A stretch of DNA of 64,000 nt from an uncultured Desulfobacteraceae bacterium (GTDB taxonomy: Bacteria; Desulfobacterota; Syntrophobacteria; BM002), in the NCBI GenBank assembly GCA_964346905.1, contig CAYFXH010000001.1, forward strand, positions 1,280 to 65,279, given 5' to 3'. The notes under the pieces are model-generated. The model had not been told where the DNA came from. It made no database searches and was given only the letters and a program-made list of their open reading frames with translations. A program made the translations under genes and the position numbers. Shown in pieces: positions 3,903-21,316 of the stretch (positions within the stretch are counted from its first letter, which is position 1; each line of letters opens with the position of its first letter).

Positions 3903-3921
3903 ATTTCCACCATACAGCTGC

Positions 3922-3952
3922 AGGGTGGGCGATGCCCACCCTACGTTTTTCT
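3922..3952 (+). terminator. Rho-independent terminator-like hairpin (AGGGTGGGC-GAT-GCCCACCCT followed by ACGTTTTTCT)
   Basis: 9-bp GC-rich perfect stem, 3-nt loop, T-run; 20 nt after stop of 3276..3902. The same palindrome recurs at 8951-8967. Confidence 0.5.
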
Positions 3953-3960
3953 AAAACGGT

Positions 3961-4079
3961 TAAAATCTAAAATCCTCAATTCCCACATTCGCAGTTCGAA
4001 ATTCGAAATTCGAAATTACTTCCCTATGCCCCATGCTCTATGCCCTATGCCCTATGCCTGCTTTAGCCACCTTAGACAC
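3961..4079. repeat. Phased heptamer tandem array (taaaatc x2 ... tcgaaat x3 ... ctatgcc x4 ...), about 17 units
   Basis: Units stay in 7-nt register across 119 nt; same words (tcgaaat, ccctatg) recur at 5569-6050, 7086-7140 and 7741-7960. Confidence 0.7.
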
Positions 4080-4080
4080 C

Positions 4081-5499
4081 TCACATAAGTGCGCTGGCCG
4101 CTGCACGGGCTATTTCAAGAAGATAGCGTGGGAATACACCCACCACCACCATTACGGTTACCAGACCCCCCGTGAGCACCTTGGTGGGAATGGACAATTG
4201 AAGTCGAGGCAAACGTTCATCCGACTCTAACAGGTAGGCGGCCCTGACTATCAAAATGTAGTAATACAGGGAAATTACCACATTGACCATTGCGATGAGC
4301 ACTAACATGAAGTACCCCTTTTTCATGGCGGCGATAAAGACCAGAAATTTGGCGGTGAAGCCGATGGTCGGGGGAATGCCGGCCAGTCCGAACATTCCGA
4401 GCATCAGGGCCATGGCAAGCATGGGGGAGCGGCGGTGTAATCCTGCCAGTTGGGCAATCTGCAAGTCACTGCCGTCATATGCCACCTTCACCACCACCAG
4501 AAAGCAGGTAAACTTCATCACTAGATAGGCCACAGCATAAAAAATCGCACCGGCATAGCCGTTTTGATTCATGCTGAGAATCCCGATCAGAACGTAGCCG
4601 GCATGGGAAATGCTTGAGTACGCCAACAGCCGCTTCATGTCCTTCTGCACAATCGCCACCAAATTCCCCAAGGTCATTGAGGCTATTGAAAGCGTAACCA
4701 GCACGTGAGCCAGATAGGTGCTGCTACCTGTGCTCAGGGCTACCGTCCTCATAAGGATTGCCACCGCCGCAACCTTGGAGGCCGTGGCAATATAGGCGGT
4801 GACCTGATTGGCAGCCCCCTGGTATGCGTCCGGGGCCCAGAAATGAAATGGGAAGACGGCAAGCTTAAAGAAGAAGCCGCACAGAGTGAGGAGCAACCCG
4901 ATGATGGCTGCCGGCCTCCCAATTGCACCGGGAAGCACCTTGATAATTTCCGCCACATAGGTGGTGTGGATAACCCCGTAGAGTGAGGCAATGCCAAAAA
5001 GCATCACCGCCGAGGCAAAAGCTCCCACCAGGAAATACTTAATGCCCGACTCCACATGTACGCCGTAACCCCTCCTGAGAGGAACCAATATGTAGAGCGA
5101 ATAACTGGAGAGTTCCAGAGCGACGTAGATGGTCAGCAACTCAACGCTGCTTACCAGTAGCATCATCGCCAGGGTGCATGTGCTCAAAAGGAGGTAGAAT
5201 TCTGGGTGGTGCCGCTCCTCTATACCATTAAGCTCAGAGCAGATACAGATCACGAGAAACAGACCCATGGCCAGAATGACCTTGAAAACCTGAGAAAAGA
5301 GATCCACCCGATAGACCTTAAAAAAGAGCGTTCCTTCCAGCCTAACTGAGGCCAAACACACTGCCACACCCACAGAGGCCAGGAAGAGGGCGATGAAGTA
5401 ATCCCTCCTAGGATTGGGTCGCACCACCAAAGCCAGGCTAAAGAAAACCGCGATCATGAACAAGAAATATAATTCAGGTATGAAGAGAGACCAATTCAC
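4081..5499 (-). CDS. nuoN: NADH-quinone oxidoreductase subunit N
   Basis: 472 aa, 14 TM-like segments; FPFHFWAPDAYQGA, ATASKVAA, KRLLAYSSISHAGY motifs align to NuoN (E. coli FHLWTPDVYQGAP / KRLLGYSSISHLGY). Confidence 0.85.
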   Translation of the reverse strand: MNWSLFIPELYFLFMIAVFFSLALVVRPNPRRDYFIALFLASVGVAVCLASVRLEGTLFFKVYRVDLFSQVFKVILAMGLFLVICICSELNGIEERHHPEFYLLLSTCTLAMMLLVSSVELLTIYVALELSSYSLYILVPLRRGYGVHVESGIKYFLVGAFASAVMLFGIASLYGVIHTTYVAEIIKVLPGAIGRPAAIIGLLLTLCGFFFKLAVFPFHFWAPDAYQGAANQVTAYIATASKVAAVAILMRTVALSTGSSTYLAHVLVTLSIASMTLGNLVAIVQKDMKRLLAYSSISHAGYVLIGILSMNQNGYAGAIFYAVAYLVMKFTCFLVVVKVAYDGSDLQIAQLAGLHRRSPMLAMALMLGMFGLAGIPPTIGFTAKFLVFIAAMKKGYFMLVLIAMVNVVISLYYYILIVRAAYLLESDERLPRLQLSIPTKVLTGGLVTVMVVVGVFPRYLLEIARAAASALM

Positions 5500-5568
5500 G
5501 GCTTCAACCTATATTGATCCGGAATGTACTGAGCTTGATTACAGTTTCACTACACGTCTAATCTGGCA

Positions 5569-5625
5569 TTAAATTCGAAATACGAAGCACGAAACAAATC
5601 CGAAATACGAATGTTCAAATGCTCC
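5569..5625. repeat. Heptamer array (cgaaata/cgaagca/cgaaaca/aatccga/aatacga); left arm of inverted repeat flanking 4HB gene
   Basis: Reverse-complementary in composition to 5976-6050 (gatttcg/aatttcg units). Confidence 0.6.
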
Positions 5626-5630
5626 AAAGA

Positions 5631-5996
5631 CTACTGACTCTTCTGCAATATGGCACCGAAAATATTCATCAGTTCGGTAGCTTCAATGATCAAAGTGTCT
5701 CGATCTTTTTCCTGTTCTTGATCTTTATTAGTGTCGACCAACCTTAGCCAATACCGGCTTTCTTTGGCCTCTTTACGGCAGATCTTGATTCGCATAATGA
5801 AGTCTTTTTTGCTGAGAGACTCATTAGCTTCAATGTAGTTCGATCCAACAGAGCCAGATGCCTTAACCAATTGTTTTCCATCTTCGATATTTGTAATAGT
5901 CCTCGGTAGTCTCTTTACGAAGGCCCTGACTTCCCTGGCAAAAGCCAGGGTGCGGTCTTCAAAATCATACTGTTTTGAATTTCGAATTTTGGACAT
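5631..5996 (-). CDS. Four-helix-bundle protein (23S rRNA intervening-sequence protein family, TIGR02436-like)
   Basis: 121 aa; motif KASGSVGSNYIEANES plus KICRKEAKESRYWLRL helices typical of IVS-encoded 4HB proteins. Sits on the same strand as the nuo genes, between nuoK and nuoN, flanked by inverted heptamer arrays. Confidence 0.7.
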   Translation of the reverse strand: MSKIRNSKQYDFEDRTLAFAREVRAFVKRLPRTITNIEDGKQLVKASGSVGSNYIEANESLSKKDFIMRIKICRKEAKESRYWLRLVDTNKDQEQEKDRDTLIIEATELMNIFGAILQKSQ

Positions 5997-6050
5997 TAGA
6001 ATTTGTTTCGGATTTCGATATTCGGATTTCGGATTTATTCCGCCTCAGGG
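5976..6050. repeat. Heptamer array (tgaattt/cgaattt/.../gatttcg x3); right arm of inverted repeat flanking 4HB gene
   Basis: Seen directly; overlaps 4HB start codon region. Confidence 0.6.
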
Positions 6051-6101
6051 TGTCCGTGTCTCCTTTTTCCCTTTTTTTTCTCGTTGCGATCGCCAGTTCC
6101 T

Positions 6102-6407
6102 TTACCATTTCAAAATGTTATAAGTTTCCGGGTTCAATGAACCCGTCCGCCTGTAGGCATAGACAATTAACGCCAGTCCCACCGAGACTTCTGCTGCTGC
6201 GATCGCAAAGATGAAAAGCACGAAGACCTGTCCCTCCAGCTGTTGCCAGCGTAGCGCTGCAGCGACAAAGGCCAGTGCGGCTGCATTCAGCATGATTTCC
6301 ACACCAATGAGCATCATGATCAGGTTGCGGCGGGCCACTGCGCAAACCACCCCCATCGCAAAAAGTATCCCTGCTAAAACCAAAACATGGCTGTAAGGCA
6401 CAATCAT
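6102..6407 (-). CDS. nuoK: NADH-quinone oxidoreductase subunit K
   Basis: 101 aa, 3 TM; LIGVEIMLNAAALAFVA motif; 4-nt overlap with nuoJ. Confidence 0.9.
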   Translation of the reverse strand: MIVPYSHVLVLAGILFAMGVVCAVARRNLIMMLIGVEIMLNAAALAFVAAALRWQQLEGQVFVLFIFAIAAAEVSVGLALIVYAYRRTGSLNPETYNILKW

Positions 6408-6931
6408 GATTCATCCTCTTTACGGTCGCCGCTCTCCTGTACATAGGCTTTGCCCAGATACAGAGCGCCGATCAGGGCTATAAGCAGCAGGAATGAGATG
6501 ATCTCCACTGAAAGCCAGTATTTCTGGAAAAGAAATCGCCCGAACACCCTCGGCTTTGCCAGGGCTGTTTCCAGAATCGTCTGGCTGCCTGGGTCTGTAG
6601 TAACTACAAGAACTGTAACAGCAAGATAGACAATGCCTAAGATACCGGCTGGGAACCATTCTCGTAGTGACGGCCTACGCAGGGCCGACGGTTCCACCCG
6701 AAGCATCATGATGATAAAAAGAAACAGGACCATAACTGCCCCGGCATAGATAATAATTTCCAGTGCGGCCAGAAGCGGTGCCCCGAAAAGATAATAGAGC
6801 ATGGCGCTCCCGAAGAAGGAGATGATCAAATAGACCACCGCATGCACCAGATTTTGCCGGGTAATGGCTAGCCCGGTGGCAACCAAAATCACGCCGGCTA
6901 AGACATAAAAAATGGCAGCATAAATGGTCAT
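6404..6931 (-). CDS. nuoJ: NADH-quinone oxidoreductase subunit J
   Basis: 175 aa multi-TM protein directly upstream of nuoK in conserved order. Confidence 0.85.
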   Translation of the reverse strand: MTIYAAIFYVLAGVILVATGLAITRQNLVHAVVYLIISFFGSAMLYYLFGAPLLAALEIIIYAGAVMVLFLFIIMMLRVEPSALRRPSLREWFPAGILGIVYLAVTVLVVTTDPGSQTILETALAKPRVFGRFLFQKYWLSVEIISFLLLIALIGALYLGKAYVQESGDRKEDES

Positions 6932-6944
6932 TCTCTTACCTTAA

Positions 6945-7140
6945 TCAGTAGTCAGTAGTCAGTAGTCAGAGAGGCATAGGGCTCAAGGCTCAGGGCGCAA
7001 GGAAAAAATTTCGTCTTCTACTGCCTTTAGCCTTACGCCTTGTGCCGTGCGCCTTTCATCAATCTGCAATCTGCAATCTCAAATCTGAAATCCCCTAATT
7101 CCGAAATCCGCAATTACTTCCCTATGCATGCTGTCTCGAG
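6945..7140. repeat. Long composite heptamer array in nuoJ-nuoI spacer (cagtagt x3, gctcaag/gctcagg, tagcctt/acgcctt/gcgcctt, tctgcaa x2/tctcaaa/tctgaaa, ccgaaat)
   Basis: Seen directly; ~200 nt of non-coding DNA inside an otherwise tightly coupled operon. Confidence 0.7.
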
Positions 7141-7148
7141 TCTCCCTC

Positions 7149-7685
7149 TCACGGCAAATTGCTTTTTATGTTCACCGGTTTATCTTCTTTCACGTGTGCT
7201 CCTTTGCCGCCAACCTCGGTTACCACTCCAGCGTATTTATAGAAGTTGTACTCGTTATTTTTGCCGCCGTGATCCACCAGAAGATCTTCTTTTTCATAGA
7301 CGAGTTTCAAAATGTCGCGCTCACATGTCTCAAAATAGGGCGTTAGTTGGATCGCCAGGGTGGGACACGCCTCTTCGCAAAGTCCACAGTAGATGCAGCG
7401 GGCAAAGTTGATGCGAAACCAGCGGGCGTAGCGGCGGCCATCCTCCTGCTCTGCCGATTGCATGGAGATGCAACTTACCGGGCAAACGGCCGAGCACAGG
7501 TAGCAGGCGACACAGCGCTCACCACCATCGGGATCCCGCGTAAGGATGATTACTGCCCGTGACCGCTCCGGCAGAGGCCGCTTGTACTCTGGGTATTCCT
7601 CGGTAATGGGTTTGCGAAAGAGATGCTTAAATGTAGTAGCAAACCCACTAGCCAAGGCCTTTAATGCTTCCAAGGTCGCCTGCAC
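7149..7685 (-). CDS. nuoI: NADH-quinone oxidoreductase subunit I (2x[4Fe-4S] ferredoxin)
   Basis: 178 aa; CVACYLCSAVCP and CIYCGLCEEACP cluster motifs. Confidence 0.9.
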   Translation of the reverse strand: MQATLEALKALASGFATTFKHLFRKPITEEYPEYKRPLPERSRAVIILTRDPDGGERCVACYLCSAVCPVSCISMQSAEQEDGRRYARWFRINFARCIYCGLCEEACPTLAIQLTPYFETCERDILKLVYEKEDLLVDHGGKNNEYNFYKYAGVVTEVGGKGAHVKEDKPVNIKSNLP

Positions 7686-7740
7686 GAAAACCCCTCTAAA
7701 CTTTTGATTGCAGTCCTACTTCATAATCTGCGCTGTTAGG

Positions 7741-7960
7741 CCTTGCAAATTCGAATATCGAAATTCGAAATCCGAAACAATGTTCAAATTCTCAAAATTG
7801 GTCCTCCGGATCCCCCAGCATACGGGCGGGTCCCAGTTTCGAATGACCAAAACTTAATACAAAGGCTTTCATTCAGAGTTGTTTTGAATATTGGAGCATT
7901 TGAATTTCGAATTTGTTTGGAAATTCGTGCTTCGGATTTCGGATTTTTAGATCAAAAGAA
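7741..7960. repeat. Inverted pair of tcgaaat/ccgaaac heptamer arrays (7741-7800 and 7890-7950) in nuoI-nuoH spacer
   Basis: Arms are reverse complements in composition (attcgaa... vs ...ttcggat). ORF 7743..8042 inside it is judged spurious. Confidence 0.6.
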
Positions 7961-8930
7961 CTGCTCCCGTCACCATGATGTTCAGCAGGGCCAGGGGTAC
8001 CAGAACCTTCCAGCCCAGGTGCATGAGTTGATCATAGCGTAGTCGTGGCAAAGTCCCCCTCACCCAAATCATGAGGATGGCAACCACAAGGATTTTAATC
8101 AGGAACCACACCACTGGTGGCAGTATGGGCCCGCGCCATCCCCCCAAGAAAAAGACGGCCACTAGCGCCCCGAATACCTGCAGATTCACGTATTCTCCGA
8201 GGAAAAACAGGCCAAAGCGCATTCCGCTATATTCTGTGTGGTAACCGGCGCCCAGTTCATTTTCCGCCTCTGGAAGGTCGAAGGGAATACGCTTGGTCTC
8301 GGCCATGGCGCTGATAAGAAAGATGGCGAAAGAGACCGGCTGCACCAGAACGAAGGGATAGTCAGCCTGGGCGCGGACAATGTCCACCAGGCTGAAGGAA
8401 CGTGCCAGCATAACTATGGGAACCAAGGAAAGCCCCAAAGAGAGCTCGTAGCTGATCATTTGGGCGGCACCACGAATACCACCCAAAAGACTGTATTTTG
8501 AGTTTGAAGCCCAGCCTCCCAGGGCAACTCCGTACACACCCAGAGAAGCCAGAGCAAACACATAAAGCAATCCTACATTCAGATCCGTGATCACAAGAGG
8601 AATTGTCTTCCCGAGAACGGTTACACTGGCACCAAAGGGGACAACTGCAAAGATAAGCAGTGCCTCGGCAGCAACCACTGCCGGAGCCAAAAGGAAAAGA
8701 GCACGGTCTGCGGCCTCAGGAACCGTATCCTCTTTGGTCAACATCTTGACAGTGTCGGCAAGGGGTTGCAGCAAGCCAAACTTTCCAGCCCGATTCGGCC
8801 CGTAGCGAATTTGTAGCCGGCCAAGGAATTTTCTCTCCAGCAGCACCAGGTAGGCAGCCAGGAGAAGCAGTCCAACCAGAACCACCCCCAGTTTTACGAT
8901 GAGCAGGATGAATCCGATAAGCCAGGTCAT
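7947..8930 (-). CDS. nuoH: NADH-quinone oxidoreductase subunit H
   Basis: 327 aa, 8 TM; LLERKFLGRLQIRYGPNR and EAENELGAGYHTEYSGMRFGLFFLGEY motifs. Confidence 0.9.
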   Translation of the reverse strand: MTWLIGFILLIVKLGVVLVGLLLLAAYLVLLERKFLGRLQIRYGPNRAGKFGLLQPLADTVKMLTKEDTVPEAADRALFLLAPAVVAAEALLIFAVVPFGASVTVLGKTIPLVITDLNVGLLYVFALASLGVYGVALGGWASNSKYSLLGGIRGAAQMISYELSLGLSLVPIVMLARSFSLVDIVRAQADYPFVLVQPVSFAIFLISAMAETKRIPFDLPEAENELGAGYHTEYSGMRFGLFFLGEYVNLQVFGALVAVFFLGGWRGPILPPVVWFLIKILVVAILMIWVRGTLPRLRYDQLMHLGWKVLVPLALLNIMVTGAVLLI

Positions 8931-8950
8931 AGGATTCCGTTCTCATGGAT

Positions 8951-8967
8951 GGTGGGCATCGCCCACC
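8951..8967. repeat. GGTGGGCATCGCCCACC palindrome (second copy of the 3922-3942 hairpin)
   Basis: Exact reverse complement of the element at 3924-3940. Confidence 0.6.
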
Positions 8968-8984
8968 AAACGGTTATTTCATGA

Positions 8985-9172
8985 ATCCTGCAGGAGCAAC
9001 GTCCTCGTTGCGATCCCACAATCCACAAACTACACAATCGTTTATCGCCAGCAGCCTCCGGCCCGGCTTTCAGGCCGGAGGGAGGGGCCTTATCGCAAGC
9101 AGAGCTTGCTCTACAGGAGTTCTCATCACATGCATTGAGCAACGCTTTATGGCGGGCACAGAGGCCCGCCCT
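8985..9172. repeat. Hairpin-rich intercistronic element, copy 1 (nuoG-nuoH spacer)
   Basis: Shares blocks cctgCaggagcaAcgtCctcgttgcgatcc and tttaTggcgggcacagaggcccgccct with copy 2 at 11768-11912; internal hairpins ctccggcc...ggccggag, gcaagc-agag-cttgc, ggcgggc...gcccgcc. Confidence 0.6.
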
Positions 9173-9214
9173 ACCGGTCTCTCATTGAAGTATGGGTAAT
9201 TCATCTTGACCATT

Positions 9215-11725
9215 TTAAGCACGTATCTTCTCTATCTCCTCAAACCTTACGAACTTCGGCGACCTCTCGATCTTCTGCCACTCCAGGAGGTGATGCCGCG
9301 GCAAAACCATCACCCCGGGAGCCATATTTTCCACAGCACAGAGATTGACTTCCAGACTACCTCTATCCAGTTCGATCGAGACCGTATCTCCATGGGTCAG
9401 ACCCAATCCGGTGGCATCATCGATGTGCATGAAGAGACAGGGGCTCTTTTCCAACCGACCGAGGGGTGGTGAGTGAGCGGAGAGTTCTTCGGTGCCAAAG
9501 GTCCAGTCAGTCAGAAGGAGTTCCAGGCCATCACCAGGAGCATGGCTTTTTTTCATCTCCTTCAGCCAGTCCAGCGAGAAGCGGTGAATATCTTCCTTAC
9601 TTACCCGGAGCCGGACCCCGTCATCCGGGAGTTCATCGATTGGCGGGATATCTGCGAATGCGGGATTGGCCTCAGCTAGCCAACCCCACACGCTCGCACG
9701 CGTTGTTTCCTCACCAACCTCCAGCTCTCCATTGGCAAGCTGTGCGAGAACTTCCCAGGCAGCCCGCAACTCCCCACCTGGAATGACACTGCTGTAAACC
9801 CGCGGCGGATGGTTGCCGCCACTAATGCGAGCGAGAGGGATTCCACCCGGATATACCTTCACTGCTGCCTGAACCCTGCCTTCCTGGTTTATGAAAACCC
9901 CACCTGTCTCATAGAGAGTTGATACAGGTAGAAAGACATGCGCCTGGTGCGCAGTTAGAGAATCTCGATAATCCAAAACAACAAGCAAATCGAGCTTTTC
10001 AATAGCAAGGTCCAACCTTTGCCGATCCTGAAAATGGCCAAAAGGATCGCTTTCGGCCACGATCAACCCCTTAACCGTTCCTTGCTCGATATCCTCGAGT
10101 GTCTTCGAGAAGGAACTCGCTTCAGCTGAAAGCACTGACGAGCCGAAACCGTTTGCTCCGGGCATCAGGTAAAAAAGTCCTGCTGGCTTGTTCATTGCCC
10201 GCAAAAGTAAGGCGTGGTCAGCTGCCAAAGCTGGAGTGGTCTGGCGTACGACCTCAGTGCCGCATACAATTATTGGTCGCTGACTCTCTCGAAGTTCTTG
10301 TGCTAATATTGATACCTGCTCCCGAAGCGGAGGAGCAGCACGTTTCAGGGCCGGCATCGCCTCGTAAAAATCGACTGCGGCCGGTCCAAGTTCTTTCGCC
10401 GCTTCACGGTGGACAGCCTGTTTTATCAGTAAACTGCAGTAGAGGTTGACCTCAGCCAATCCCACTGGCATGTGTTCGAAATCAAAGGGCAAGGAGATCG
10501 GTCGAGGGTCGATGACAGCTATCGTGCCGCCGGCTCGTCGGGCCTGTCTCATTGCCAAGGCCAGCATGGGCGCCTCGTTGATGGGATCGGCTCCCACCAC
10601 AAGGATGAAATCAGCTCCTTCCAACTCCCGCAGAGAAACCGTTAAGTCCGGTTCCAGCCTTGAGGTTGCTATTTCCGCCTTTATCGCCAGGGATTGATCC
10701 ATAAAGTATGACGGACCGTTCCATCCTTTTGATTGACATAGCTGCTCGAGCATTGCCTGAGTTTCGAGAGTGCTGCGTCCTGAGCCCACGCAACCGATAG
10801 CCTCAGCTCCTTCCCTCTTGCTAATCTGTTCCAGCCTTTCATGGACGGTTCTGATAGCCTGGTGGTAAGTAACCTCCTCGCCTTCAACCAGTGACCGCCA
10901 TGGTCTCTTCTCGTCGCTTGCATAGGCGAAGCCGTAGCGGCCCCGATCACATATAAAGTAGCCGTTTACCGCCTCACTGTATCGTGCTTCCTGCCGCACT
11001 ACCTCCCGGTAACGAATACTTGCTATGGTATGACATCCTAAAGAGCAGTTGATACAGAGAGAAGGGCTACGCTCATAGTCCCACCGCCTACCGAAAAACC
11101 GAGATGGTTTATCGGTGTAAACACCAGTGGGGCAGATATCGGCCAGATTGCCGGCAAAGGGGCTTTTTAGGGTGCCATCTTTGTACCGGCCAAAATAGGT
11201 GCGGTCGCCTATCTGCATCACGCCCAGGTCGTCATACCCCGCAAATTCTTGATAGAACCGCGAACACCGGTAGCAGTGAATGCAGCGATTCATTTCATGC
11301 TGGAGCAACGGACCCAGGTACTGATCTTGGTAAGTCCGTTTCTTCCCCAGATATCTTCGGATACCGTGCCCCCCCGAAATCGTCATATCCTGCAATAGGC
11401 AGTGCCCCCCTTCATCGCAGACAGGACAATCATGCGGATGATGCAGCATGAGCCATTCGATTACGTATTTACGAAATTCCACCGATTCTTCGTCGGTGGT
11501 TGATACCACCATGCCGTTCTTAGCATCGATCATGCAGCTCATCTGCACGCCTTTAAACGGCCCTTCCACGAACTTCACGGCACAAACCCGGCAGGCCCCC
11601 ACAGACCCCAGTCCGGGATGATAGCAAAAGCGAGGAATCATAATGTCCAGCTGTTCCGCGGCCTCGATCACCTTTGTCCCTTCGGGGACCTCTATTTCTC
11701 GATCATCGATAATTATCTTAACCAT
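9215..11725 (-). CDS. nuoG: NADH-quinone oxidoreductase subunit G (75 kDa, 2Fe-2S/4Fe-4S, molybdopterin-like domain)
   Basis: 836 aa; N-terminus MVKIIIDDREIEVPEGTKVIEAAEQLDIMIPRFCYHPGLGSVGACRVCAV, CPVCDEGGHC and CIHCYRCSRF cluster motifs. Confidence 0.9.
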   Translation of the reverse strand: MVKIIIDDREIEVPEGTKVIEAAEQLDIMIPRFCYHPGLGSVGACRVCAVKFVEGPFKGVQMSCMIDAKNGMVVSTTDEESVEFRKYVIEWLMLHHPHDCPVCDEGGHCLLQDMTISGGHGIRRYLGKKRTYQDQYLGPLLQHEMNRCIHCYRCSRFYQEFAGYDDLGVMQIGDRTYFGRYKDGTLKSPFAGNLADICPTGVYTDKPSRFFGRRWDYERSPSLCINCSLGCHTIASIRYREVVRQEARYSEAVNGYFICDRGRYGFAYASDEKRPWRSLVEGEEVTYHQAIRTVHERLEQISKREGAEAIGCVGSGRSTLETQAMLEQLCQSKGWNGPSYFMDQSLAIKAEIATSRLEPDLTVSLRELEGADFILVVGADPINEAPMLALAMRQARRAGGTIAVIDPRPISLPFDFEHMPVGLAEVNLYCSLLIKQAVHREAAKELGPAAVDFYEAMPALKRAAPPLREQVSILAQELRESQRPIIVCGTEVVRQTTPALAADHALLLRAMNKPAGLFYLMPGANGFGSSVLSAEASSFSKTLEDIEQGTVKGLIVAESDPFGHFQDRQRLDLAIEKLDLLVVLDYRDSLTAHQAHVFLPVSTLYETGGVFINQEGRVQAAVKVYPGGIPLARISGGNHPPRVYSSVIPGGELRAAWEVLAQLANGELEVGEETTRASVWGWLAEANPAFADIPPIDELPDDGVRLRVSKEDIHRFSLDWLKEMKKSHAPGDGLELLLTDWTFGTEELSAHSPPLGRLEKSPCLFMHIDDATGLGLTHGDTVSIELDRGSLEVNLCAVENMAPGVMVLPRHHLLEWQKIERSPKFVRFEEIEKIRA

Positions 11726-11767
11726 TGGTCAATAAAAGGGGTCAGGCAGTTCGAGTTAATGCTCGTT

Positions 11768-11912
11768 GTCCTGTAGGAGCACCGTGCTCGTTGCGATCCA
11801 TTCGCATGTGTACCAATTCATCTATCAAATCGCGACCTGGAGGTCGCTCCTACAGACAATTTACCAATGATGGCTTTTAGGCGGGCACAGGAGGCTCCGC
11901 CCTATTGAGATT
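11768..11912. repeat. Hairpin-rich intercistronic element, copy 2 (nuoF-nuoG spacer)
   Basis: Blocks cctgTaggagcaCcgtGctcgttgcgatcc and tttaggcgggcacaggaggctccgccct; long-range complementarity ctgtaggagc ... gctcctacag. Confidence 0.6.
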
Positions 11913-11976
11913 ATCTACCTTTAGACGCATTAGGCACTTCAGCTCACTTTAGGCATGTCTAGCCTGACAGCTGACA

Positions 11977-13254
11977 TCACTTCCTAAAAGGACATCTCTT
12001 TTGACTAATGTGCTCCCTGACCTCATCTTCAAAGTAGGTAATGAGGCTCTCAACCGGTGATACGGCACCGGGGGCGAATGCACAGTAAGAACTCCAGAGA
12101 TGCTTGCTCATCTGCTGAAGCATTGGTATGAACTCCTCCCTGCCCTCACCTTCTTCCAAACGTCGGAGCAGATCCCGGATGTACGGCAGACCTTCCCGGC
12201 ACGGCGTACACCAACCGCAGGACTCTCGGGCAAAAAACTCGGTTAAGTTCAGGGTGGCGGCAACAAGACACGTCTTCTGGTCGAAGACCATGATTGCACC
12301 GGTACCGAGTCTATGTCCAACTGCGCGCATGGGATCAAAGTCCATTTCAATGTCGTAGAACTCCTTGGGCAGATAGCGGGTGGAAGCGCCGCCCGGCAGA
12401 CAGGCCTTATATTCGGAACCTTCTGGCATCCCGCCAGCATGGACTTCAATGATTTCACTCAGCTGCACTCCCATGGGTAGTTCTACGCAGCCCGGCTTAT
12501 TGACCCTGCCACTGATACAGAAAATCTTGGTACCCGCACCGGTTTCATTTATTGCCAGGCTTTTGTACCACTCAGAGCCGTTTCTGATGATATGCGGTAT
12601 GTTTGCGAGAGTTTCCACGTTCTGAAGTACGGTGGGCTTGTCCCAAAGCCCCTTTTCCGTAGGATAGGGAGGTGGTTGCTGCGGGTTCGGCCTCTTGCCC
12701 ATCAGGGCATTTAATTGAGCCGTGACCTCGCCGCAGATGTATCTACCTCCACTGCGGTGGACAACAATGTCCAGGCTATAGTCGTTTCCCAGGATGTTTT
12801 TTCCCAAAAAGCCTGCCTCTTTGGCAATCTTGATCTCCCTTTCGAGAATTCTTGCCGCGCTCTCGTATTCAGGTCGAATGAAAATAATGCCCTTCTCCGC
12901 CTTTGCCCCGTATCCATCGATGATCATGCCCTCAATAATCATGTGGGGGTCCGTATGGATCAAGACCCGATCTTTGAATGTTCCTGGCTCCATCTCATCG
13001 GCATTACACACGACGTATCTCGGATACGGCGCATCATCCGCTACCGTCATCAACTTCCTTCCGGCTGGAAAGGCGGCGCCACCCCTACCCAGCAGAATGG
13101 CATCCAAGAGTACCTGCTGCACGTCCTTGTAGGAGTAGTTGCGCATTACCTCAGTCAATGCCTGGTAACCGCCGCTCTGCTGATATTCCTCAAGCGTGGC
13201 AATTCGGTCCGGCTTGCGATTTTGAAAGAGAACTTGCGGATAGCTCGGGGCCAT
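11977..13254 (-). CDS. nuoF: NADH-quinone oxidoreductase subunit F (51 kDa, FMN/NADH-binding)
   Basis: 425 aa; GRGGAAFPAGRK (FMN site), ESCGWCTPCREG 4Fe-4S motif. Confidence 0.9.
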   Translation of the reverse strand: MAPSYPQVLFQNRKPDRIATLEEYQQSGGYQALTEVMRNYSYKDVQQVLLDAILLGRGGAAFPAGRKLMTVADDAPYPRYVVCNADEMEPGTFKDRVLIHTDPHMIIEGMIIDGYGAKAEKGIIFIRPEYESAARILEREIKIAKEAGFLGKNILGNDYSLDIVVHRSGGRYICGEVTAQLNALMGKRPNPQQPPPYPTEKGLWDKPTVLQNVETLANIPHIIRNGSEWYKSLAINETGAGTKIFCISGRVNKPGCVELPMGVQLSEIIEVHAGGMPEGSEYKACLPGGASTRYLPKEFYDIEMDFDPMRAVGHRLGTGAIMVFDQKTCLVAATLNLTEFFARESCGWCTPCREGLPYIRDLLRRLEEGEGREEFIPMLQQMSKHLWSSYCAFAPGAVSPVESLITYFEDEVREHISQKRCPFRK

Positions 13255-13296
13255 CTGTCCTCGCCTCTCGGTTCAGGGACGCATCACTATTCTAAG

Positions 13297-13378
13297 AGGT
13301 GCGATGTGGGATATGGGATGTGTACTGCCAGAAGACGGGCTTCGAAGAATCTCTATCTCACATCTCACATCCTCGCTC
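13297..13378. repeat. Hairpin element built from GATGTGR heptamers (gcgatgtgggatatgggatgtg ... atctcacatctcacatcctcgc)
   Basis: Inverted arms seen directly in the nuoE-nuoF spacer; same word family as 18155-18245. Confidence 0.6.
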
Positions 13379-13421
13379 CAGGACAGCCGCATATTGTGCT
13401 TCTTCATTATGATGTAACCAT

Positions 13422-13970
13422 CTAAGCCTGTGATTTGAGCTTGTCTAAGATCTCATCTAGTTTCTCGGGCGTAAGCGGTCCGTATACTTTCTTGTTGATT
13501 AACATAGCTGGTGCTCTATCGCAGTAGCCAATGCAGCACACCGGCAATAGGGTAAACAGTCCGTCTGCCGTGGTTTCCCCCATCTCTATCCCTAATTTCC
13601 GGCAGAGGTGCTCAATAATTGACTCATGTCCTTCCATCCAGCAGATGACACTGTCACAGATGTGGATAACGTATTTTCCAACCGGCTCTCTGTAGACGAA
13701 GGTGTAGAACGTAGCGAGTTCTTCCACCTCCAGGGGAGACATATTCAGGAGTGCGGCCACCTCCTCAACAGCCTCATCGCTCAGATAGCCGTAGTGGTCT
13801 TGGACAGCGAACATCACATCCACCACCAGCTCCCGGGGATGTTCGACGGTGGCTATGTGTTCTTCGAGGGAATTTTTCAACGGTTCAGGCAACATTGGAT
13901 GTCTAGACCCACATGAGCTCAATGGAGTGCTGGAGTAACAGTACTCCACTACTCCCGTTTTCCTGGCCAC
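13422..13970 (-). CDS. nuoE: NADH-quinone oxidoreductase subunit E (24 kDa, thioredoxin-like 2Fe-2S)
   Basis: 182 aa; CDSVIC...CCIGYCDRAP cysteine pattern; ORF-track start is GTG, true start uncertain. Confidence 0.85.
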   Translation of the reverse strand: MARKTGVVEYCYSSTPLSSCGSRHPMLPEPLKNSLEEHIATVEHPRELVVDVMFAVQDHYGYLSDEAVEEVAALLNMSPLEVEELATFYTFVYREPVGKYVIHICDSVICWMEGHESIIEHLCRKLGIEMGETTADGLFTLLPVCCIGYCDRAPAMLINKKVYGPLTPEKLDEILDKLKSQA

Positions 13971-14014
13971 CCCAGATTACCTAGATGCAACTGACCACGG
14001 ACAACGGACATTAT

Positions 14015-16405
14015 TTATCTATCTATATCCGGCAGAATATAGTCGATGGAACCTACGATGGCGATGAGGTCTGCAATGGTCTCATTCACAGCCATCAAGG
14101 GCATCACCTGCACATTGGCAAATCCGGGTGCACGTATCCTCGTGCGATAGGAGTAGCCGACTCCGTCACTCACCACGTAATAGCCCTGTTCCCCCCGGGG
14201 GATCTCACAGGAACTGTAAGCTTCACCTTTGGGGATTTTGGGTCCACGGGTTACGTTGATAAAATGATGAATTAGGCTCTCTATGTCTTTGAGCATGTCC
14301 CCGCGCTCAGGGATCACATAGCGGTAATCGTCCGTGACGTACCGACCAGCAGGCATCTGCTCTGCGGCCTGTTCAATAATCCTCAAACTCTGGCGCATTT
14401 CTTCCACCCGCAACAGATAACGGGCATAACAATCTCCTTCCGTGGCGGTGGGCACTTCAAACTCAAAGTTCTCGTAACCAGAATATGGAAAATTCTTTCG
14501 CAGATCCCACTCCAGACCGCAGGCACGCAAGTTTGGACCACTCACGCCCCAGTCAATGGAATCTTCCAAGGAGATGCGGCCGATGCCCTGGGTTCGGGCC
14601 TTAAAGATGGCGTTCTTGGTTATGAGTGTTTCGTACTCTTTGAGCCGCTCAGGGAATATTTTGACAAAGTAATCCACCGCTTCTTTCCAACCCTCCGGCA
14701 AGTCAGCGGCAACACCTCCCAACCGGAACCAGGACGGATGCAATCGTCCTCCGGTTATGAGTTCAATAATGTCGAGAATTATCTCCCGTTCGCGGAAGGT
14801 ATAGAAATTGGGGGTCATGGCTCCCACATCGTGGGCCATGGTGGCAAAAAAGACGAGGTGGTTGCTGAGCCGGAAAAACTCGCTGAGCATCACCCGAATA
14901 ACCTGAGCCCGATCAGGAACATTGATATCGGCAAGTGCTTCCACCGCCATTACGTATGGGAGATTATTGGCAGCCCCAGCCAGGTAATCCACTCGATCCG
15001 TGTATGGAATATATTGGTGCCAGGTTTGGCGTTCGCCGATTTTTTCCGCCGCCCGATGGTGGTAGCCGATGTCCATGTCAAGTTCGGTGATCTCTTCACC
15101 TTCAAGTGAGACAATAAAGCGCATCAGGCCGTGGGTACTGACGTGGTGAGGACCGATGTTTAATACCAGCTGGTGCTCCTTTCCATCTCTCCTAATATAG
15201 ATACCACCATCCAGGGGTTGGTGCTGCTGGGCATCGGCCAGGGTATAAGGCTCCATTTCCGTTGCACGGCCAGGATAGCTCTTTCTCAGGGGATGGCCCT
15301 CCCAGTCGTGCGGCATAAGAATGCGACCGAGATTCGGATGACCCTCAAACCGGATCCCAAACATGTCGTAGACTTCCCGTTCATACCAGCTTGCAGACGG
15401 CCAGATATCGGTGACACTTTTGGTAACCGGTTCCTCACCGTTTAGGGCAACCTTTACACGCAACCGGCAGGCGGGCTCGAATGAGAGCAGGTGATAGACC
15501 AGGGTGTAGTCCGAATAACCAGCTCGCTCCCTCCGGGCGGATTCATCAATTGCGGTGAGATCGTCCAAGCGTCGGTACCTGGGAGTCGCTTCTCCTTTGA
15601 GAAAACGCAGAACATCCTTAAACCGTTCGTGCGGTACCTGGAATGTGGGCATGTCCGAGGTCTGTGGCGTCTGCTGGATATCGTCCCCAAACCGCTCTTG
15701 CAAAACATTTGCGAGGCTCGTATCATCCTCACTCAATTCTATTCGCCGCGGCCGGGGTGTCCACATGAGATCGGAGCGGCTGTCCCAAAATTTCGGTGGA
15801 GCCACTGAAGTCCCTCTGATGGCAACACCTTGCATGCCCGGGCCACGCGGGTCTCGAGACTTTGTCTGGCCATCGACGAGAATGGGCGTCTGAGTGCCCT
15901 GGGTACCCCCTGGGAGGTGGAAAATGGCACGAGTCGGTCGTTCTTCCGAGACTATTTTTTCTTGCAAAAGCACAAGCCCTTGGAGTACAGCCTCAGGTCT
16001 GGGTGGGCAGCCAGGAATATAGACATCCACCGGCAATATCTGATCCACCCCCTGCACTACGCTATAGGCGTCATACATGCCACCACAGTTGGAGCACGAT
16101 CCCATAGAGATGACCCACTTGGGTTCCGCCATCTGCTCGTAAAGCCGCAAAACAACAGGGGCAATCTTCTTGAAAACAGTACCGGATATTATTAAGAGAT
16201 CCGCCTGCCGGGGTGAAGGCCGGAGCACCTCCGCCCCGAAGCGGGCCATGTCGTACCGGGCGGTAAAAGCGGTAGCCTCCTCCACGAAGCAGCAGGAAAG
16301 CCCAAAAAACATGGGCCAGAGACTGTACTTACGGGCCCAGTTTATCAGGAAATCGGCCCCCTGCAGCAACCGGTTGTTCAATGCTTTTTCGACGTTGGCC
16401 CCCAC
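14015..16405 (-). CDS. nuoBCD: Fused NADH-quinone oxidoreductase subunits B, C and D in one ORF
   Basis: 796 aa single ORF. Residues ~1-170 are NuoB ([14 protein letters not shown]...GCPPRPE), then a ~100-aa linker, then NuoC ([19 protein letters not shown]), then NuoD ([10 protein letters not shown]...[10 protein letters not shown]). Confidence 0.85.
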
Positions 16406-16788
16406 TCAAGTCCCCCCTTCTTCCAGATATACAGAAGACCAAGGAGCAGAACGATAATGAAGAACGATATTTGCAACCAGCCCGCCCAGCCGAGGCTATC
16501 GTAAGAAATGGCCCAGGAGAAAATGTAGGCCGCCTCCACATCAAAAATGAGAAAGAAGATGGCAACAAGGTAAAAAGGAACGGGGTAACGAAGACGAGCC
16601 GAGCCGGTAGGAATTACCCCGCTTTCATAAGGCCTGAGTTTCTCAGGATTGCTTTTCTTTTCCCCGAGCCAGGAAGCAAAAAAGAGGAGCACCACCACCA
16701 GACCTAGCACCATAAGACCGTAGATAGCCAAGCTAAAAAGACCCGGCTCCCAGGGCGAGAGTGTACCGACAGTTAGGATTGGTTGCAC
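16378..16788 (-). CDS. nuoA: NADH-quinone oxidoreductase subunit A
   Basis: 136 aa, 3 TM; PYESGV...[12 protein letters not shown] motifs; 28-nt overlap with nuoBCD start. Confidence 0.85.
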
Positions 16789-18268: not shown

Positions 18269-18319
18269 CTCTTGTGGCCGATACGGAGATCGGCCCTACG
18301 AAAAGAAGGTGGACCAGTT

Positions 18320-21040
18320 ATGGCTTTGACCGGTGCTTGGAATGCCGATTTCATCGATGAACAATATCGGCTGTGGAAGTCTGATCCCAGCAAGGTTTCC
18401 CGAGATTGGCAGTTTTTCTTTGAAGGTTTTGAGTTGGCCTCTGCCAGAGAGGCCGAAGTGGTTCTGGTCCACGATGATGACCAGGTTTCACGCCAGTCGC
18501 GGGTTGAAGCGCTTGTATATCGCTATCGTGATCTCGGACACCTGCTGGCCTGTCTGGATCCGCTTACGGCCTGCCCCACCGATCACCCTTTCTTAAATCC
18601 GGCGGCTTTTAACCTCACGGACGACGATCTGGATCGAGAATTCTACACCCAGCTTTTCCCTGACAGAGACCTGGCTTCCCTGCGCGAGATTCTTGAAGCC
18701 CTGAAAGAAACGTACTGCCGCTCCCTCGGGGTTGAGTATATGCACCTGCAGGACCCCGCGGAGCGCCAGTGGCTGCAAGAGCGTATGGAACCAGGTCGTA
18801 ATCGACCGATTTTGACCAAAGAGCAAAGAGTACGAATTCTTGATAAGCTGTACCAGGCCTCCCTCTTCGAACAGTTTCTCCATAAGAAGTACCTGGGTCA
18901 AACACGCTTTTCCCTGGAGGGAGCTGAGGCCCTAATTCCCATGCTGGATTCTCTCTTGAACCATGTTGCTGCAGGAGACTGCAGAGAAATTATCCTGGGG
19001 ATGGCTCATCGCGGGCGTTTGAATGTGCAGGCAAATATACTCGAAAAATCATACGAGGAGATTTTCTGCGAGTTTGAGAGCAACTATGACCCGGATACCG
19101 TATTTGGTGCCGGGGATGTCAAATACCACAACGGCTTCCTGGCTGACGTCCAAGTGGCCAACAATCGCGAAATGAGACTTTTTCTGGTTAACAATCCGAG
19201 TCACCTAGAGTCGGTCAATCCCGTGGTAGAAGGATTCGCTCGAGCCCGGCAGGACATATTGAGTGAGGAGGACGGACGTAGGATGGTGCTGCCGCTTCTC
19301 ATCCACGGTGACGCCGCCTTCGCCGGTCAGGGCGTTGTCGCCGAAACCTTAAACATGTCTCAACTTGAAGGGTACAGCACTGGGGGCACTGTTCATATTA
19401 TCATCAACAACCAGATTGGTTATACCACTTTGCCCGAAGATGCTCGCTCTACCCGCTACTCCACCGATATAGCTAAGATGCTCATGGTACCCATCTTCCA
19501 TGTCCATGGGGAGAATCCGGAAAGCGTCATTCACGTTACAAAACTTGCCTGTGACTATCGCATGGAATTCGGCAAGGATGTGGTCATTGATCTGGTCTGT
19601 TACCGCCGCTATGGGCACAACGAGGGCGACGAACCTTATTTTACTCAACCCCAGATGTACCAACGTATCAGGGAGAGACCGCCACTATACAAGATTTACG
19701 GTGAACAACTACTCGCGGAAAAGACGGTAACCGATGATGAGGTTAAAAGCATCGAGGCTGGCATAAAGGAGCGTTTAGAAACTTCCTTTACGACTATGCG
19801 AGAAAAACAGTGCGTCCTTCCCACTGTCAAATATTATGAGAACTGGGAGGGAATTAATGGAGAATATGCTCATACATCCGTAAAGACGGCCGTTCCAAAA
19901 AAGCAGCTCCTTGCCCTCGGTGGGAAATTGAATACCGTCCCAAAGGACTTCTCTCTCCACCCGAAGCTAGTGGGCCTTCTCAAAAAAAGGCTGGAAACCA
20001 TAGAAAAAGGGGCAGAAATCGACTGGGCCAACGCTGAAACCCTTGCTTTTGGCTCTCTGCTTTTGGAAGGTTTTCCCATTCGACTCAGTGGTCAGGACAG
20101 CCGTCGGGGCACCTTCAGCCAAAGACACAGCTCTTTGGTGGACACCAAGACCGGTGATGTATTCGTAGCTCTCAATGCTTTAGGTGAAGGGCAGGCTCCC
20201 TTTTACGCCTATGACAGCCTACTCTCCGAAGCCGGCGTCGTCGGCTTTGAATACGGGTATTCTCTCGCCCAACCGAATGGGCTGATCATGTGGGAGGCAC
20301 AATTCGGTGACTTCGTCAATAACGCCCAGGCGGTAATCGATCTTTACATAACCAGCGGGCAGTCTAAATGGCAGCGCTTAAGCGGTCTGGTCTTACTGCT
20401 TCCGCACGGTTTCGAAGGAATGGGGCCGGAGCATTCGAGTGCTCGTCTGGAGCGCTTTCTGCAGCTGTGTGCTGAGGAAAACATTCAGGTTTGCAACCCT
20501 ACTACCCCAGCTCAGTACTTTCATCTGCTCAGACGCCAGGTGAAGCGAGATTTTCGCAAGCCTTTGGTGGTTATGACTCCCAAAAGCCTACTGCGCCACC
20601 CCCTTGCGGTTTCGCACCTCGTGGAAATGACCTCAGGCTCCTTTAAAGAAGTTCTCGATGATGGTAACAACAAGAAAACCTGCCGCCGCATCCTCTTTTG
20701 TAGTGGCAAGATTTATTACGAACTCTTTCAGAGGCGCCAGGATCTGAAAGCGTCTGACATTGGTATCGTGCGGCTGGAGCAACTGTATCCCTTCCCTGAA
20801 AAGCAACTGGGAGGGGTGATCGATACATACAGTAGGGCCAAAGAGTGGTATTGGGTCCAGGAAGAACCCGAGAATATGGGAGGATGGAGCTTCATCCGAC
20901 CACGGTTGGCATCGTTAGCTGAAAAGCACATCAACTATATTGGCAGAGAAGCGGCGGCTAGCCCGGCCACAGGTTTTCGCAGTATCTACAAGGTTCAACA
21001 ACAGGCCATTGTCGACGAGGCTATTGGTCCGGTCCCATAA
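18320..21040 (+). CDS. sucA: 2-oxoglutarate dehydrogenase E1 component
   Basis: ORF-track frame 18272..21040; preferred start is Met17 (MALTGAWNADFIDEQYRLW) with GAAGGTGG RBS 7 nt upstream. ThDP-dependent E1 fold throughout (e.g. GQGVVAETLN, RYGHNEGDEP). Confidence 0.9.
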   Translation: MALTGAWNADFIDEQYRLWKSDPSKVSRDWQFFFEGFELASAREAEVVLVHDDDQVSRQSRVEALVYRYRDLGHLLACLDPLTACPTDHPFLNPAAFNLTDDDLDREFYTQLFPDRDLASLREILEALKETYCRSLGVEYMHLQDPAERQWLQERMEPGRNRPILTKEQRVRILDKLYQASLFEQFLHKKYLGQTRFSLEGAEALIPMLDSLLNHVAAGDCREIILGMAHRGRLNVQANILEKSYEEIFCEFESNYDPDTVFGAGDVKYHNGFLADVQVANNREMRLFLVNNPSHLESVNPVVEGFARARQDILSEEDGRRMVLPLLIHGDAAFAGQGVVAETLNMSQLEGYSTGGTVHIIINNQIGYTTLPEDARSTRYSTDIAKMLMVPIFHVHGENPESVIHVTKLACDYRMEFGKDVVIDLVCYRRYGHNEGDEPYFTQPQMYQRIRERPPLYKIYGEQLLAEKTVTDDEVKSIEAGIKERLETSFTTMREKQCVLPTVKYYENWEGINGEYAHTSVKTAVPKKQLLALGGKLNTVPKDFSLHPKLVGLLKKRLETIEKGAEIDWANAETLAFGSLLLEGFPIRLSGQDSRRGTFSQRHSSLVDTKTGDVFVALNALGEGQAPFYAYDSLLSEAGVVGFEYGYSLAQPNGLIMWEAQFGDFVNNAQAVIDLYITSGQSKWQRLSGLVLLLPHGFEGMGPEHSSARLERFLQLCAEENIQVCNPTTPAQYFHLLRRQVKRDFRKPLVVMTPKSLLRHPLAVSHLVEMTSGSFKEVLDDGNNKKTCRRILFCSGKIYYELFQRRQDLKASDIGIVRLEQLYPFPEKQLGGVIDTYSRAKEWYWVQEEPENMGGWSFIRPRLASLAEKHINYIGREAAASPATGFRSIYKVQQQAIVDEAIGPVP

Positions 21041-21100
21041 TCGCAGAGCGCATGGCTTGATGAGACAAGATCGCTTTGACGCCCGGTAATGCGCGCGTGA

Positions 21101-21265: not shown

Positions 21266-21316
21266 ATTCATTGTTGGCGAGAGGTTTCTGAACAACCAAA
21301 TAACCTAGGAGCAACC

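Follow-up and report, generated by a model that had tools for sequence, protein, structure and literature searches.

The membrane arm of respiratory complex I runs in the order NuoH, then NuoA, NuoJ and NuoK, then the antiporter-like subunits NuoN, NuoM and NuoL, and each antiporter-like subunit turns the half built from transmembrane helices (TM) 4-8 toward the quinone side and the half built from TM9-13 toward the next subunit. NuoN is the sole antiporter-like subunit to touch head-specific partners; NuoM and NuoL touch only NuoN and each other. How much the distal antiporter-like subunits contribute to the stoichiometry of 4 H+ per 2 e- is still debated. The 11-subunit complex I-like enzymes of anaerobes, for example in Desulfitobacterium, are encoded by nuoABCDHIJKLMN without nuoEFG (PMC11238625), in cyanobacterial NDH-1 the antiporter-like subunits come in different sets that are encoded separately (PMC3144371), and a fusion of NuoB, NuoC and NuoD has been detected as protein in Desulfococcus multivorans (PMC5109826). 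Here we describe a nuo operon in a 64,000-nucleotide stretch of an uncultured Desulfobacteraceae bacterium (contig CAYFXH010000001.1, positions 1,280 to 65,279; hereafter the window) that encodes a NADH-oxidising complex I without nuoL and nuoM. We put it at about even chances that the operon specifies a functional NADH:quinone oxidoreductase lacking only its distal pump module (NuoM and NuoL), which would be supplied in trans by a second operon.

Eleven successive open reading frames (ORFs) occupy positions 4081-16788 of the window on the minus strand: nuoA, nuoBCD, nuoE, nuoF, nuoG, nuoH, nuoI, nuoJ, nuoK, an ORF of a four-helix-bundle (4HB) family, and nuoN. Gene families were assigned with curated NCBIfam and Pfam models at their own cut-offs, and they uphold the gene order, fused nuoBCD included, that had been proposed in a preliminary description of this DNA. 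The N-module is complete (NuoE, NuoF and NuoG), as is the Q-module (NuoB, NuoC and NuoD, fused, together with NuoI). The proximal membrane subunits NuoH, NuoA, NuoJ, NuoK and NuoN are likewise all encoded; H, K and N pass their cut-offs, and A and J give significant matches below theirs. The distal subunits NuoL and NuoM, which belong to a 14-subunit complex I, are encoded neither in the operon nor anywhere in the 64-kb window, as judged by family models and by tblastn with the NuoL', NuoM' and NuoN' of a relative described below. In the tblastn search with these genuine antiporter-like subunits nuoN was the only antiporter-like gene recovered from the window. The absence of L and M between nuoK and nuoN had already been remarked upon, and the gap indeed contains nothing more than the 4HB ORF. 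The nuoN gene itself (4081-5499, minus strand) encodes 472 aa that score 359.7 bits on TIGR01770 (cut-off 332.6) and far lower on the NuoM model. The protein can be aligned along almost all of its length to NuoN/Nqo14/ND2 chains from solved complex I structures, and it keeps all four of the hallmark charged residues: the TM5 glutamate (ALELSS) and the lysines of TM7 (FFKLAVFPFH), TM8 (ASKVAA) and TM12 (GFTAKF).

The other subunit genes, all on the minus strand, have the following features. NuoA (16378-16788, 136 aa) has a best NCBIfam NuoA match of E 1.3e-23, under the curated cut-offs; it is 59-73% identical to NuoA in related operons, and its gene shares 28 nt with the start of nuoBCD. The latter (14015-16405) is a single 796-aa fusion that scores 1422.6 bits on the NCBIfam equivalog PRK13292, 'subunit B/C/D' (cut-off 1156), and belongs to that equivalog as one polypeptide in the order B-C-D, with the B, C and D domains at about residues 9-157, 229-383 and 409-796 and the Pfam domains in the order PF01058 (Oxidored_q6), PF00329 (Complex1_30kDa) and PF00346 (Complex1_49kDa). 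For nuoE the maximal ORF (13422-13970, 182 aa) scores 208 bits on NF005722 (cut-off 141), and alignment with relatives indicates that the true start is likely Met26 at 13895, which would give 157 aa as in those relatives. NuoF (11977-13254, 425 aa) matches TIGR01959 over its full length at 487 bits, under the cut-off of 558, and its orthologues in relatives contain Complex1_51K, SLBB and NADH_4Fe-4S domains. NuoG (9215-11725, 836 aa; TIGR01973 517.8 bits, cut-off 470) has the Pfam domains Fer2_4, NADH-G_4Fe-4S_3, Fer4_Nqo3 and Molybdopterin. NuoH (7947-8930, 327 aa) scores 354.8 bits on NF004741 (cut-off 305) and NuoI (7149-7685, 178 aa) 267.7 bits on NF004536 (cut-off 212). NuoJ (6404-6931, 175 aa) matches NuoJ models at E 4.7e-31, under their cut-offs, and its orthologues in relatives carry Oxidored_q3. 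Its gene overlaps nuoK (6102-6407, 101 aa) by 4 nt, and NuoK scores 101.9 bits on NF004319 (cut-off 101) and 100.2 bits on NF004320 (cut-off 57), with 92-97% identity in the closest relatives.

Mapping of the window Nuo proteins onto 80 related loci (numbered with an L below) and three further contexts distinguishes four operon types. The closest other genomes are metagenome-assembled genomes (MAGs) labelled Syntrophobacterales, Desulfobacterota or Deltaproteobacteria, and the nearest named relatives, with NuoN 59-64% identical, are Desulforhabdus sp. TSK and the peat-soil MAG Syntrophobacter sp. SbD1. Type (i), the L/M-less arrangement ...BCD-E-F-G-H-I-J-K-N, occurs not only in the window but also in six further lineages, namely CP070692 bin617 (L002/L007), JASFEM01 Bin_34 (L004), FCS_Desulfobacterota_29 (L005), CP070735 bin40 (L006), JGI contigs L084/L085 and the ENA contig L086. 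Identity to the window is 84-89% for NuoN and 91-92% for NuoH in this group. Type (ii) is the canonical ...E-F-G-H-I-J-K-L-M-N of sister clades (NuoH 77-84% and NuoN 63-71% identical), and type (iii) is a 12-gene A-BCD-H-I-J-K-L-M-N operon of Syntrophobacteraceae. Type (iv) is an 11-subunit operon, A'-B'-C'-D'-H'-I'-J'-K'-L'-M'-N', followed by a small gene with a NuoF 4Fe-4S domain. The absence of L and M is thus a trait of the clade and not a local accident. The fusion of nuoBCD, which the preliminary description had singled out, is real yet ordinary for the lineage; it has an NCBIfam equivalog of its own, recurs in every related operon of 14 or 12 genes, and was already known. We also note one Syntrophobacteraceae MAG, Prado125 (JALOPI01), with two complete A-BCD-H-I-J-K-L-M-N operons (L072 and L073), whose NuoN proteins are 60% and 58% identical to that of the window.

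The position of nuoL and nuoM is taken in the window by a K-N spacer of 602 nt (5500-6101, minus strand). It contains a cassette with the 4HB ORF (5631-5996, minus strand, 121 aa), a member of the four-helix-bundle/23S rRNA intervening-sequence (IVS) family of about 110-aa proteins by scores of 68.1 bits on TIGR02436 (cut-off 24) and 46 bits on PF05635 (cut-off 33.8). The ORF lies 105 nt from nuoK and 131 nt from nuoN, and it is flanked by inverted arrays of AAATYCG heptamers at 6003-6042 and 5571-5620. It had been suggested that this insertion displaced L and M, and that the nuoK-nuoN junction be compared in relatives. That comparison speaks against displacement: K-N adjacency is common to the six other lineages, and their spacers, 139-826 nt long among L/M-less relatives, are empty or hold other cargo. 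The 4HB ORF is missing from the K-N position in L002, L004, L005, L006 and L084. The spacers of L002 (330 nt) and L084 (139 nt) have no ORF, those of L004 and L006 have a glyoxalase-fold ORF (5828-6232 in L004), and that of L005 has an IS200-like Y1 transposase (1799-2266; PF01797 32.9 bits, cut-off 23) between inverted GTAG hairpins, flanked by a 26-nt inverted repeat with 92% identity. The L086 spacer holds a divergent 4HB ORF (9480-9866), just 38% identical to that of the window, and the same locus has a second one between nuoG and nuoH (6504-6776). Sensitive tblastn found no remnants of nuoL or nuoM in five K-N spacers (best E about 0.04). Since the K-N adjacency is shared and the spacer contents differ among lineages, the loss of L and M predates the 4HB insert and is independent of it; an old deletion left the K-N spacer, which was later colonised repeatedly. 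The 4HB ORF is cargo of this spacer and not a complex I subunit.

A near-identical copy of the locus (99.3-100%) is present in GCA_012974945.1 (L001, JABAOD010014046.1), where many indels split nuoF, nuoG and nuoN by frameshifts. This copy, and the gaps within MAG 'chromosomes' of the clade, might suggest that L and M were lost by misassembly or by a recent deletion and that the locus is non-functional. The frameshifts of L001 reflect a low-quality assembly and not real pseudogenes. The K-N junction recurs in independent NCBI, JGI and ENA assemblies, the window K-N spacer has no runs of N, and all ORFs of the window operon are intact. Pairwise Nei-Gojobori comparison of the window with type (i) relatives covered F, G, H, I, J, K and N, and the ratio of nonsynonymous to synonymous divergence (dN/dS) ranged from 0.01 to 0.14. 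Synonymous divergence (dS) exceeded 1 in most pairs, with a lowest value of 0.62 and values up to more than 2. Because of these selection data and the independent assemblies, an assembly artefact or decaying operon is effectively refuted, and we regard it as extremely improbable. Purifying selection at near-saturated synonymous sites argues that the L/M-less operon has been maintained, is old and is not decaying, and by these measures it appears to be functional.

Where, then, might a NuoM and a NuoL come from? The preliminary description had advised a search of the rest of the genome, and to look beyond the locus was sound advice, but it had not anticipated that relatives hold L and M within a second nuo operon, of 11-subunit type and with a near-copy of nuoN. 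Two genomes hold operons of types (i) and (iv) together, namely CP070735 bin40 (L006 and L010) and FCS_Desulfobacterota_29 (L005 and L027). In type (iv) NuoL' scores 510 bits on TIGR01974 (cut-off 407.5) and NuoM' 426 bits on TIGR01972 (cut-off 263.8), and NuoN' passes as well. NuoN' is 79-81% identical to NuoN of the window, whereas A', D', H', I', J' and K' are just 27-47% identical to their window counterparts. Compared with L, M and N of canonical operons, L' is 60-67%, M' 75-82% and N' 57-69% identical. The L-M-N module has stayed similar while the heads diverge, and within the lineage it is therefore demonstrably compatible with heads of two very different kinds. In CP070692 bin617 (L003/L008) a nuoN' appears to stand alone, and we considered it as a possible genome without L and M. 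This was rejected: a 100-N scaffold gap (L003 9899-9998, at about 2.53 Mb of CP070692.1) abuts the start codon, and the usual 4Fe-4S gene lies downstream. This nuoN' is a cut-off view of a type (iv) operon and is no evidence for missing L and M.

All of the type (iv) operons end with a conserved gene of 246-257 aa, the C-terminal half of which is the NuoF 4Fe-4S domain (PF10589) without the FMN/NADH-binding part. It is at 11472-12212 in L010, and also follows nuoN' in L003, L009-L019, L027, L047, L078, L083 and L087. The electron donor of the 11-subunit complex I is a long-standing open question, and the product of this gene is a candidate electron-input partner of that enzyme.

These genomes could also have, at a third locus, a nuoL-nuoM pair that belongs to the L/M-less operon and is orthologous to the genes of the 14-type. 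Split nuo clusters are common in bacteria, and in Syntrophobacteraceae loci L052-L056, L060 and L063 nuoEFG is unlinked from A-BCD-H...N. The NuoM' search took in the 120 best-matching cluster representatives, the lowest of them at 82% identity; these leave out the NuoM' of bin63 (L014, 93.7% identical), so that absence from among them means nothing, which leaves some room for such a pair. Within the same best 120, the only NuoM matched to the closed genome CP070735 is the 11-type NuoM', and NuoN has its closest relative in the second operon, namely N', as would be expected of sharing more than of relocation. We consider relocation to a third locus improbable.

The relationship of the two NuoN proteins was analysed with distance-based neighbour-joining (NJ) trees. 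N is most similar to N', and N' to N, and in an outgroup-rooted tree the N clade and the N' clade are supported at 97% and 85% bootstrap. The node that joins them as sisters has just 37% and is nested in a 77% group with one canonical N and distant 11-type N' sequences. There are only 25 fixed differences between N and N'; three conservative changes could be assigned to the N branch, compared with 12 for N', suggesting that N' is the more derived copy. Since dS between N and N' is greater than 2, there has been no recent gene conversion. A first NJ tree had suggested that nuoN was captured from an 11-type operon; in view of the rooted bootstrap value and the more derived state of N', we leave the direction open. 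We conclude that N and N' are old paralogues. Conservation of NuoN TM9-13 within the clade is 0.90, and an equally deep clade with canonical K-L-M-N also gives 0.90. Together with the few changes on the N branch, this is consistent with continued contact with M and with a NuoN that shows no sign of partner loss, its distal, M-facing half being neither remodelled nor relaxed.

Supply of the distal module in trans would work as follows. The operon would provide the NADH-oxidising subunits E, F and G, the quinone module of fused BCD and I, and the proximal membrane subunits H, A, J, K and N, and NuoM' and NuoL' from the 11-subunit-type operon, located at another place in the genome, would complete the enzyme. 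Two different complex I heads would in this way depend on one distal pump module, and each would retain its own NuoN as a docking subunit, with the proximal half of NuoN contacting head-specific A/J/K and the distal half contacting the shared M. Because NuoN alone touches head-specific partners, each head would keep its own N and a single M/L pair could be shared. We infer that the source genome itself carries the second operon, and that M' and L' physically assemble onto the complex encoded by this operon. A variant of the proposal is that one NuoM/NuoL module is time-shared by the two heads through their paralogous NuoN adaptors.

Several considerations weigh against supply in trans. The second operon is known from relatives, our coverage of the source assembly being that of the window; the one lead is an NCBI NuoM' sequence, 94.7% identical to that of FCS_Desulfobacterota_29, which is a candidate for the NuoM' of the source organism. 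Co-occurrence of both operons comes from n = 2 genomes; among the mapped loci there is no second operon for the MAG of L004, and L' and M' of CP070692 bin617 are hidden behind the 100-N gap. The sister node of N and N' has the low bootstrap value given above. A hydrophobic intramembrane surface may stay conserved without a partner, which weakens the argument from NuoN conservation. Assembly of M' and L' with the products of the operon, and co-expression with them, are predictions of this reading, and complexes without the distal module are active (PMC3160329), so that supply in trans is not strictly needed.

The last point leads to a natural truncated complex I, in which NuoN would be the sole antiporter-like subunit beside the channel formed by H, A, J and K and about half of the usual protons would be moved per NADH. 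In favour of it, the operon forms a self-contained unit, and it is conserved and subject to purifying selection although L and M are missing; moreover, no L or M is seen beside nuoN' in CP070692, albeit with the 100-N gap intervening. Transfer of electrons from NADH to menaquinone releases about 47 kJ per 2 e- (from standard potentials), and lower pumping would suit the small NADH-menaquinone potential gap of an anaerobe and be readily reversible. E. coli complex I without NuoL reportedly still transfers electrons with a reduced H+/e- stoichiometry (an observation attributed to Steimle et al. 2011). In yeast, a complex I subcomplex without ND4 and ND5, the homologues of M and L, is active and keeps about half of the pumping capacity (PMC3160329). 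Set against these points, the checkable genomes encode a compatible L' and M', the M-facing half of NuoN is neither remodelled nor relaxed, and the sister clades, presumably with the same quinone chemistry, retain K-L-M-N. On balance we regard a truncated enzyme as plausible and as the main rival to supply in trans, though less likely than it. If it did exist, it would be a half-length complex I ending at NuoN and long under selection, and we suggest only tentatively that it would serve anaerobes as a readily reversible NADH:menaquinone coupling site of lower stoichiometry.

Whichever holds, the clade offers a natural test case for the contribution of the distal subunits, which has so far been probed only by laboratory deletions and fragile subcomplexes. 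It keeps a NADH-oxidising operon without nuoL and nuoM under selection, alongside a second operon with nearly the same L-M-N module. Sharing of the distal module would make the pump module a free-standing, exchangeable bacterial unit with NuoN as its adaptor; without sharing, evolution would have produced a working half-pump. There is also a practical consequence, in that a published census counts genomes missing any of the 14 nuo genes as lacking complex I, and pipelines that apply such an all-14-gene rule would score these organisms, and this operon, as without complex I (PMC4453560).

The repeat content of the operon's spacers is far above chance. The E/F/G/H/I/J junctions had been described as 170-290 nt long and occupied by repeats, and we measured 167-284 nt and confirmed the repeats; all of the spacers within the operon are given here on the minus strand. 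Between nuoBCD and nuoE there are about 119 nt if nuoE starts at Met26 (44 nt with the maximal ORF), with a heptamer array at 13988-14010. The E-F spacer (13255-13421, 167 nt) has a (GTGAGAT)n heptamer array at 13355-13371. The F-G spacer (11726-11976, 251 nt) has a hairpin resembling repetitive extragenic palindromes (REPs), GGGCGGAGCCTCCTGTGCCCGCC, near 11881-11905, and an inverted pair, CTGTAGGAGC...GCGAT, at 11771-11797 and 11829-11855. GTAG-type hairpins occupy the G-H spacer (8931-9214, 284 nt): GTAGGGCGGGCCTCTGTGCCCGCC (about 9144-9174), CTGTAGAGCAAGCTCTGCTTGCGAT, GGATCGCAACGAGGACGTTGCTCCTGCAGG (8986-9016) and GGTGGGCGATGCCCACC (8951-8967). The H-I spacer (7686-7946, 261 nt) has inverted AAATYCG-heptamer arrays at 7747-7797 and 7899-7946 around about 100 nt, and the ends of these arrays are the same two that flank the 4HB ORF, here without an ORF. 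One such end is also present in the K-N spacer of L002 (about 9860-9935). The AAATYCG-bounded units look like a family of elements akin to miniature inverted-repeat transposable elements (MITEs) able to carry a 4HB gene, with the H-I unit as an ORF-less copy. The I-J spacer (6932-7148, 217 nt) is nearly all heptamer arrays: (GACTACT)3.6 at 6945-6969, one at 6980-7002, (AGATTGC)4.7 at 7060-7092 and one at 7097-7127. In the region 3' of nuoN (3903-4080) there are heptamer arrays at 3987-4017 (ATTCGAA) and 4022-4058 (CCCTATG), and a plus-strand hairpin, AGGGTGGGCGATGCCCACCCT (3922-3942), that is terminator-like for a convergent 208-aa ORF.

Repeats of these kinds extend beyond the operon. Tandem heptamers detected with Tandem Repeats Finder (TRF) are intergenic across the window and include (GACTACT)n, (AGATTGC)n, (GCATAGG)n and (AAATYCG)n. 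The AAATYCG family, searched as AAATYCGAAATYCGAA with at most 2 mismatches, has 20 matches in the window where 0.17 are expected; 17 of the 20 lie in 3992-7946 and the other three between sucA and sucB. Imperfect palindromes of REP type, headed by GTAG, are found in the F-G and G-H spacers (GTAGGGCGGG...CCCGCC and CTGTAGGAGC...GCGAT), with a related copy after nuoN. They are short, intergenic, imperfect, headed by 5' GTAG and multicopy, as REPs are, with few copies in 64 kb. Gaps between same-strand genes in the window have a median of 92 nt and a maximum of 529 nt, the 2-oxoglutarate dehydrogenase cluster sucA-sucB-lpd (18272-24339) has gaps of 180 and 335 nt, and spacer lengths differ among relatives. 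Other operons of the window are equally loose, and the filling with repeats is thus a genome habit of the lineage that is not peculiar to complex I. Both the 4HB ORF and the repeat spacers are lineage-wide intergenic 'junk or mobile' DNA that colonised the operon, and lie outside the enzyme. A terminator scan of the operon (minus) strand gave a single intergenic site, a weak one in the I-J spacer; promoter-like sites were not enriched in the spacers, and Rfam and tRNA scans found no Rfam families or tRNAs in the window. A putative role of the spacer repeats in mRNA processing or stability is possible. The cyanobacterial signature HIP1 (GCGATCGC) was tried as a further repeat and set aside, with 3 matches against 0.94 expected, which is not significant.

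Two further regions of the window may be mentioned. Near its edge, at 61042-63981, an ORF encodes 979 aa in which a molybdopterin-like part (QrcB-like, 238 bits) is fused to a 4Fe-4S part (QrcC-like, 220 bits); both scores are under the NCBIfam cut-offs, and the protein resembles ActB of alternative complex III or Qrc-type quinone reductases. An MshA-like glycosyltransferase of family GT4 (TIGR03449 367 bits, under the cut-off of 462) and a nearby 417-aa ORF, of which only the last 100 or so residues resemble cysteine-tRNA ligase, are encoded at 39251-40459 and 42081-43334.

The repeat families have recognisable counterparts. As in REPs and their associated tyrosine transposases (RAYTs), the palindromes are intergenic, imperfect, GTAG-headed and of several families. 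An IS200-like Y1 transposase flanked by inverted copies is present in the K-N spacer of L005; in the window no RAYT or cognate Y1 transposase gene was found. The heptamers are confined to intergenic DNA in tandem, like the short tandemly repeated repetitive (STRR) sequences of cyanobacteria. Unlike either REP/RAYT systems or STRRs, the heptamer arrays of the window form inverted pairs able to bracket the 4HB ORF, an arrangement of which we found no description in the literature searched.

With regard to the enzyme, the operon has the same N-, Q- and proximal P-module genes in the same order as the canonical 14-subunit NDH-1 of E. coli, T. thermophilus and P. denitrificans, and its NuoN aligns to NuoN/Nqo14 structures with the catalytic Glu and Lys residues intact. 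It differs from them in having no nuoL or nuoM within 64 kb, in the fusion of B, C and D, and in junctions of 105-284 nt in place of a few nt. The fusion is the same three-domain protein as the NuoBCD of other Desulfobacterota (PRK13292), with no notable difference. In the literature searched we found no report of a natural, conserved NADH-type nuo operon without nuoL and nuoM, nor of two nuo operons in Desulfobacterota, nor of such an operon paired with a second one holding a near-identical L-M-N. The Yarrowia subcomplex without ND4 and ND5 (PMC3160329) and E. coli complex I without NuoL have the same subunit deficit as the coding content of this operon. Those are laboratory mutants or fragile subcomplexes, whereas the deficit here is natural, clade-wide and selected, and may be made good in trans. 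The second operon of the relatives is of the 11-subunit type and is the only source of L and M seen, while the operon of the window encodes a head of the 14-type that includes EFG; a further feature of the 11-type operons in this lineage is the terminal gene for a NuoF-C-terminal 4Fe-4S protein.

If the distal module is supplied in trans, the closest parallel would be the NDH-1 of cyanobacteria and chloroplasts, in which NdhD and NdhF, the exchangeable homologues of M and L, are encoded apart from the NdhB (N) core and combined with it in trans. In the relatives the core and M/L are at separate loci, as in the modular NDH-1 of cyanobacterial type. The window enzyme has NuoEFG, unlike cyanobacterial NDH-1, and there is no phylogenetic relationship between the two. 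The logic would also be turned around: cyanobacteria use several M/L pairs with one head, whereas we propose for the clade of the window one M/L pair for two heads, each with an N of its own.

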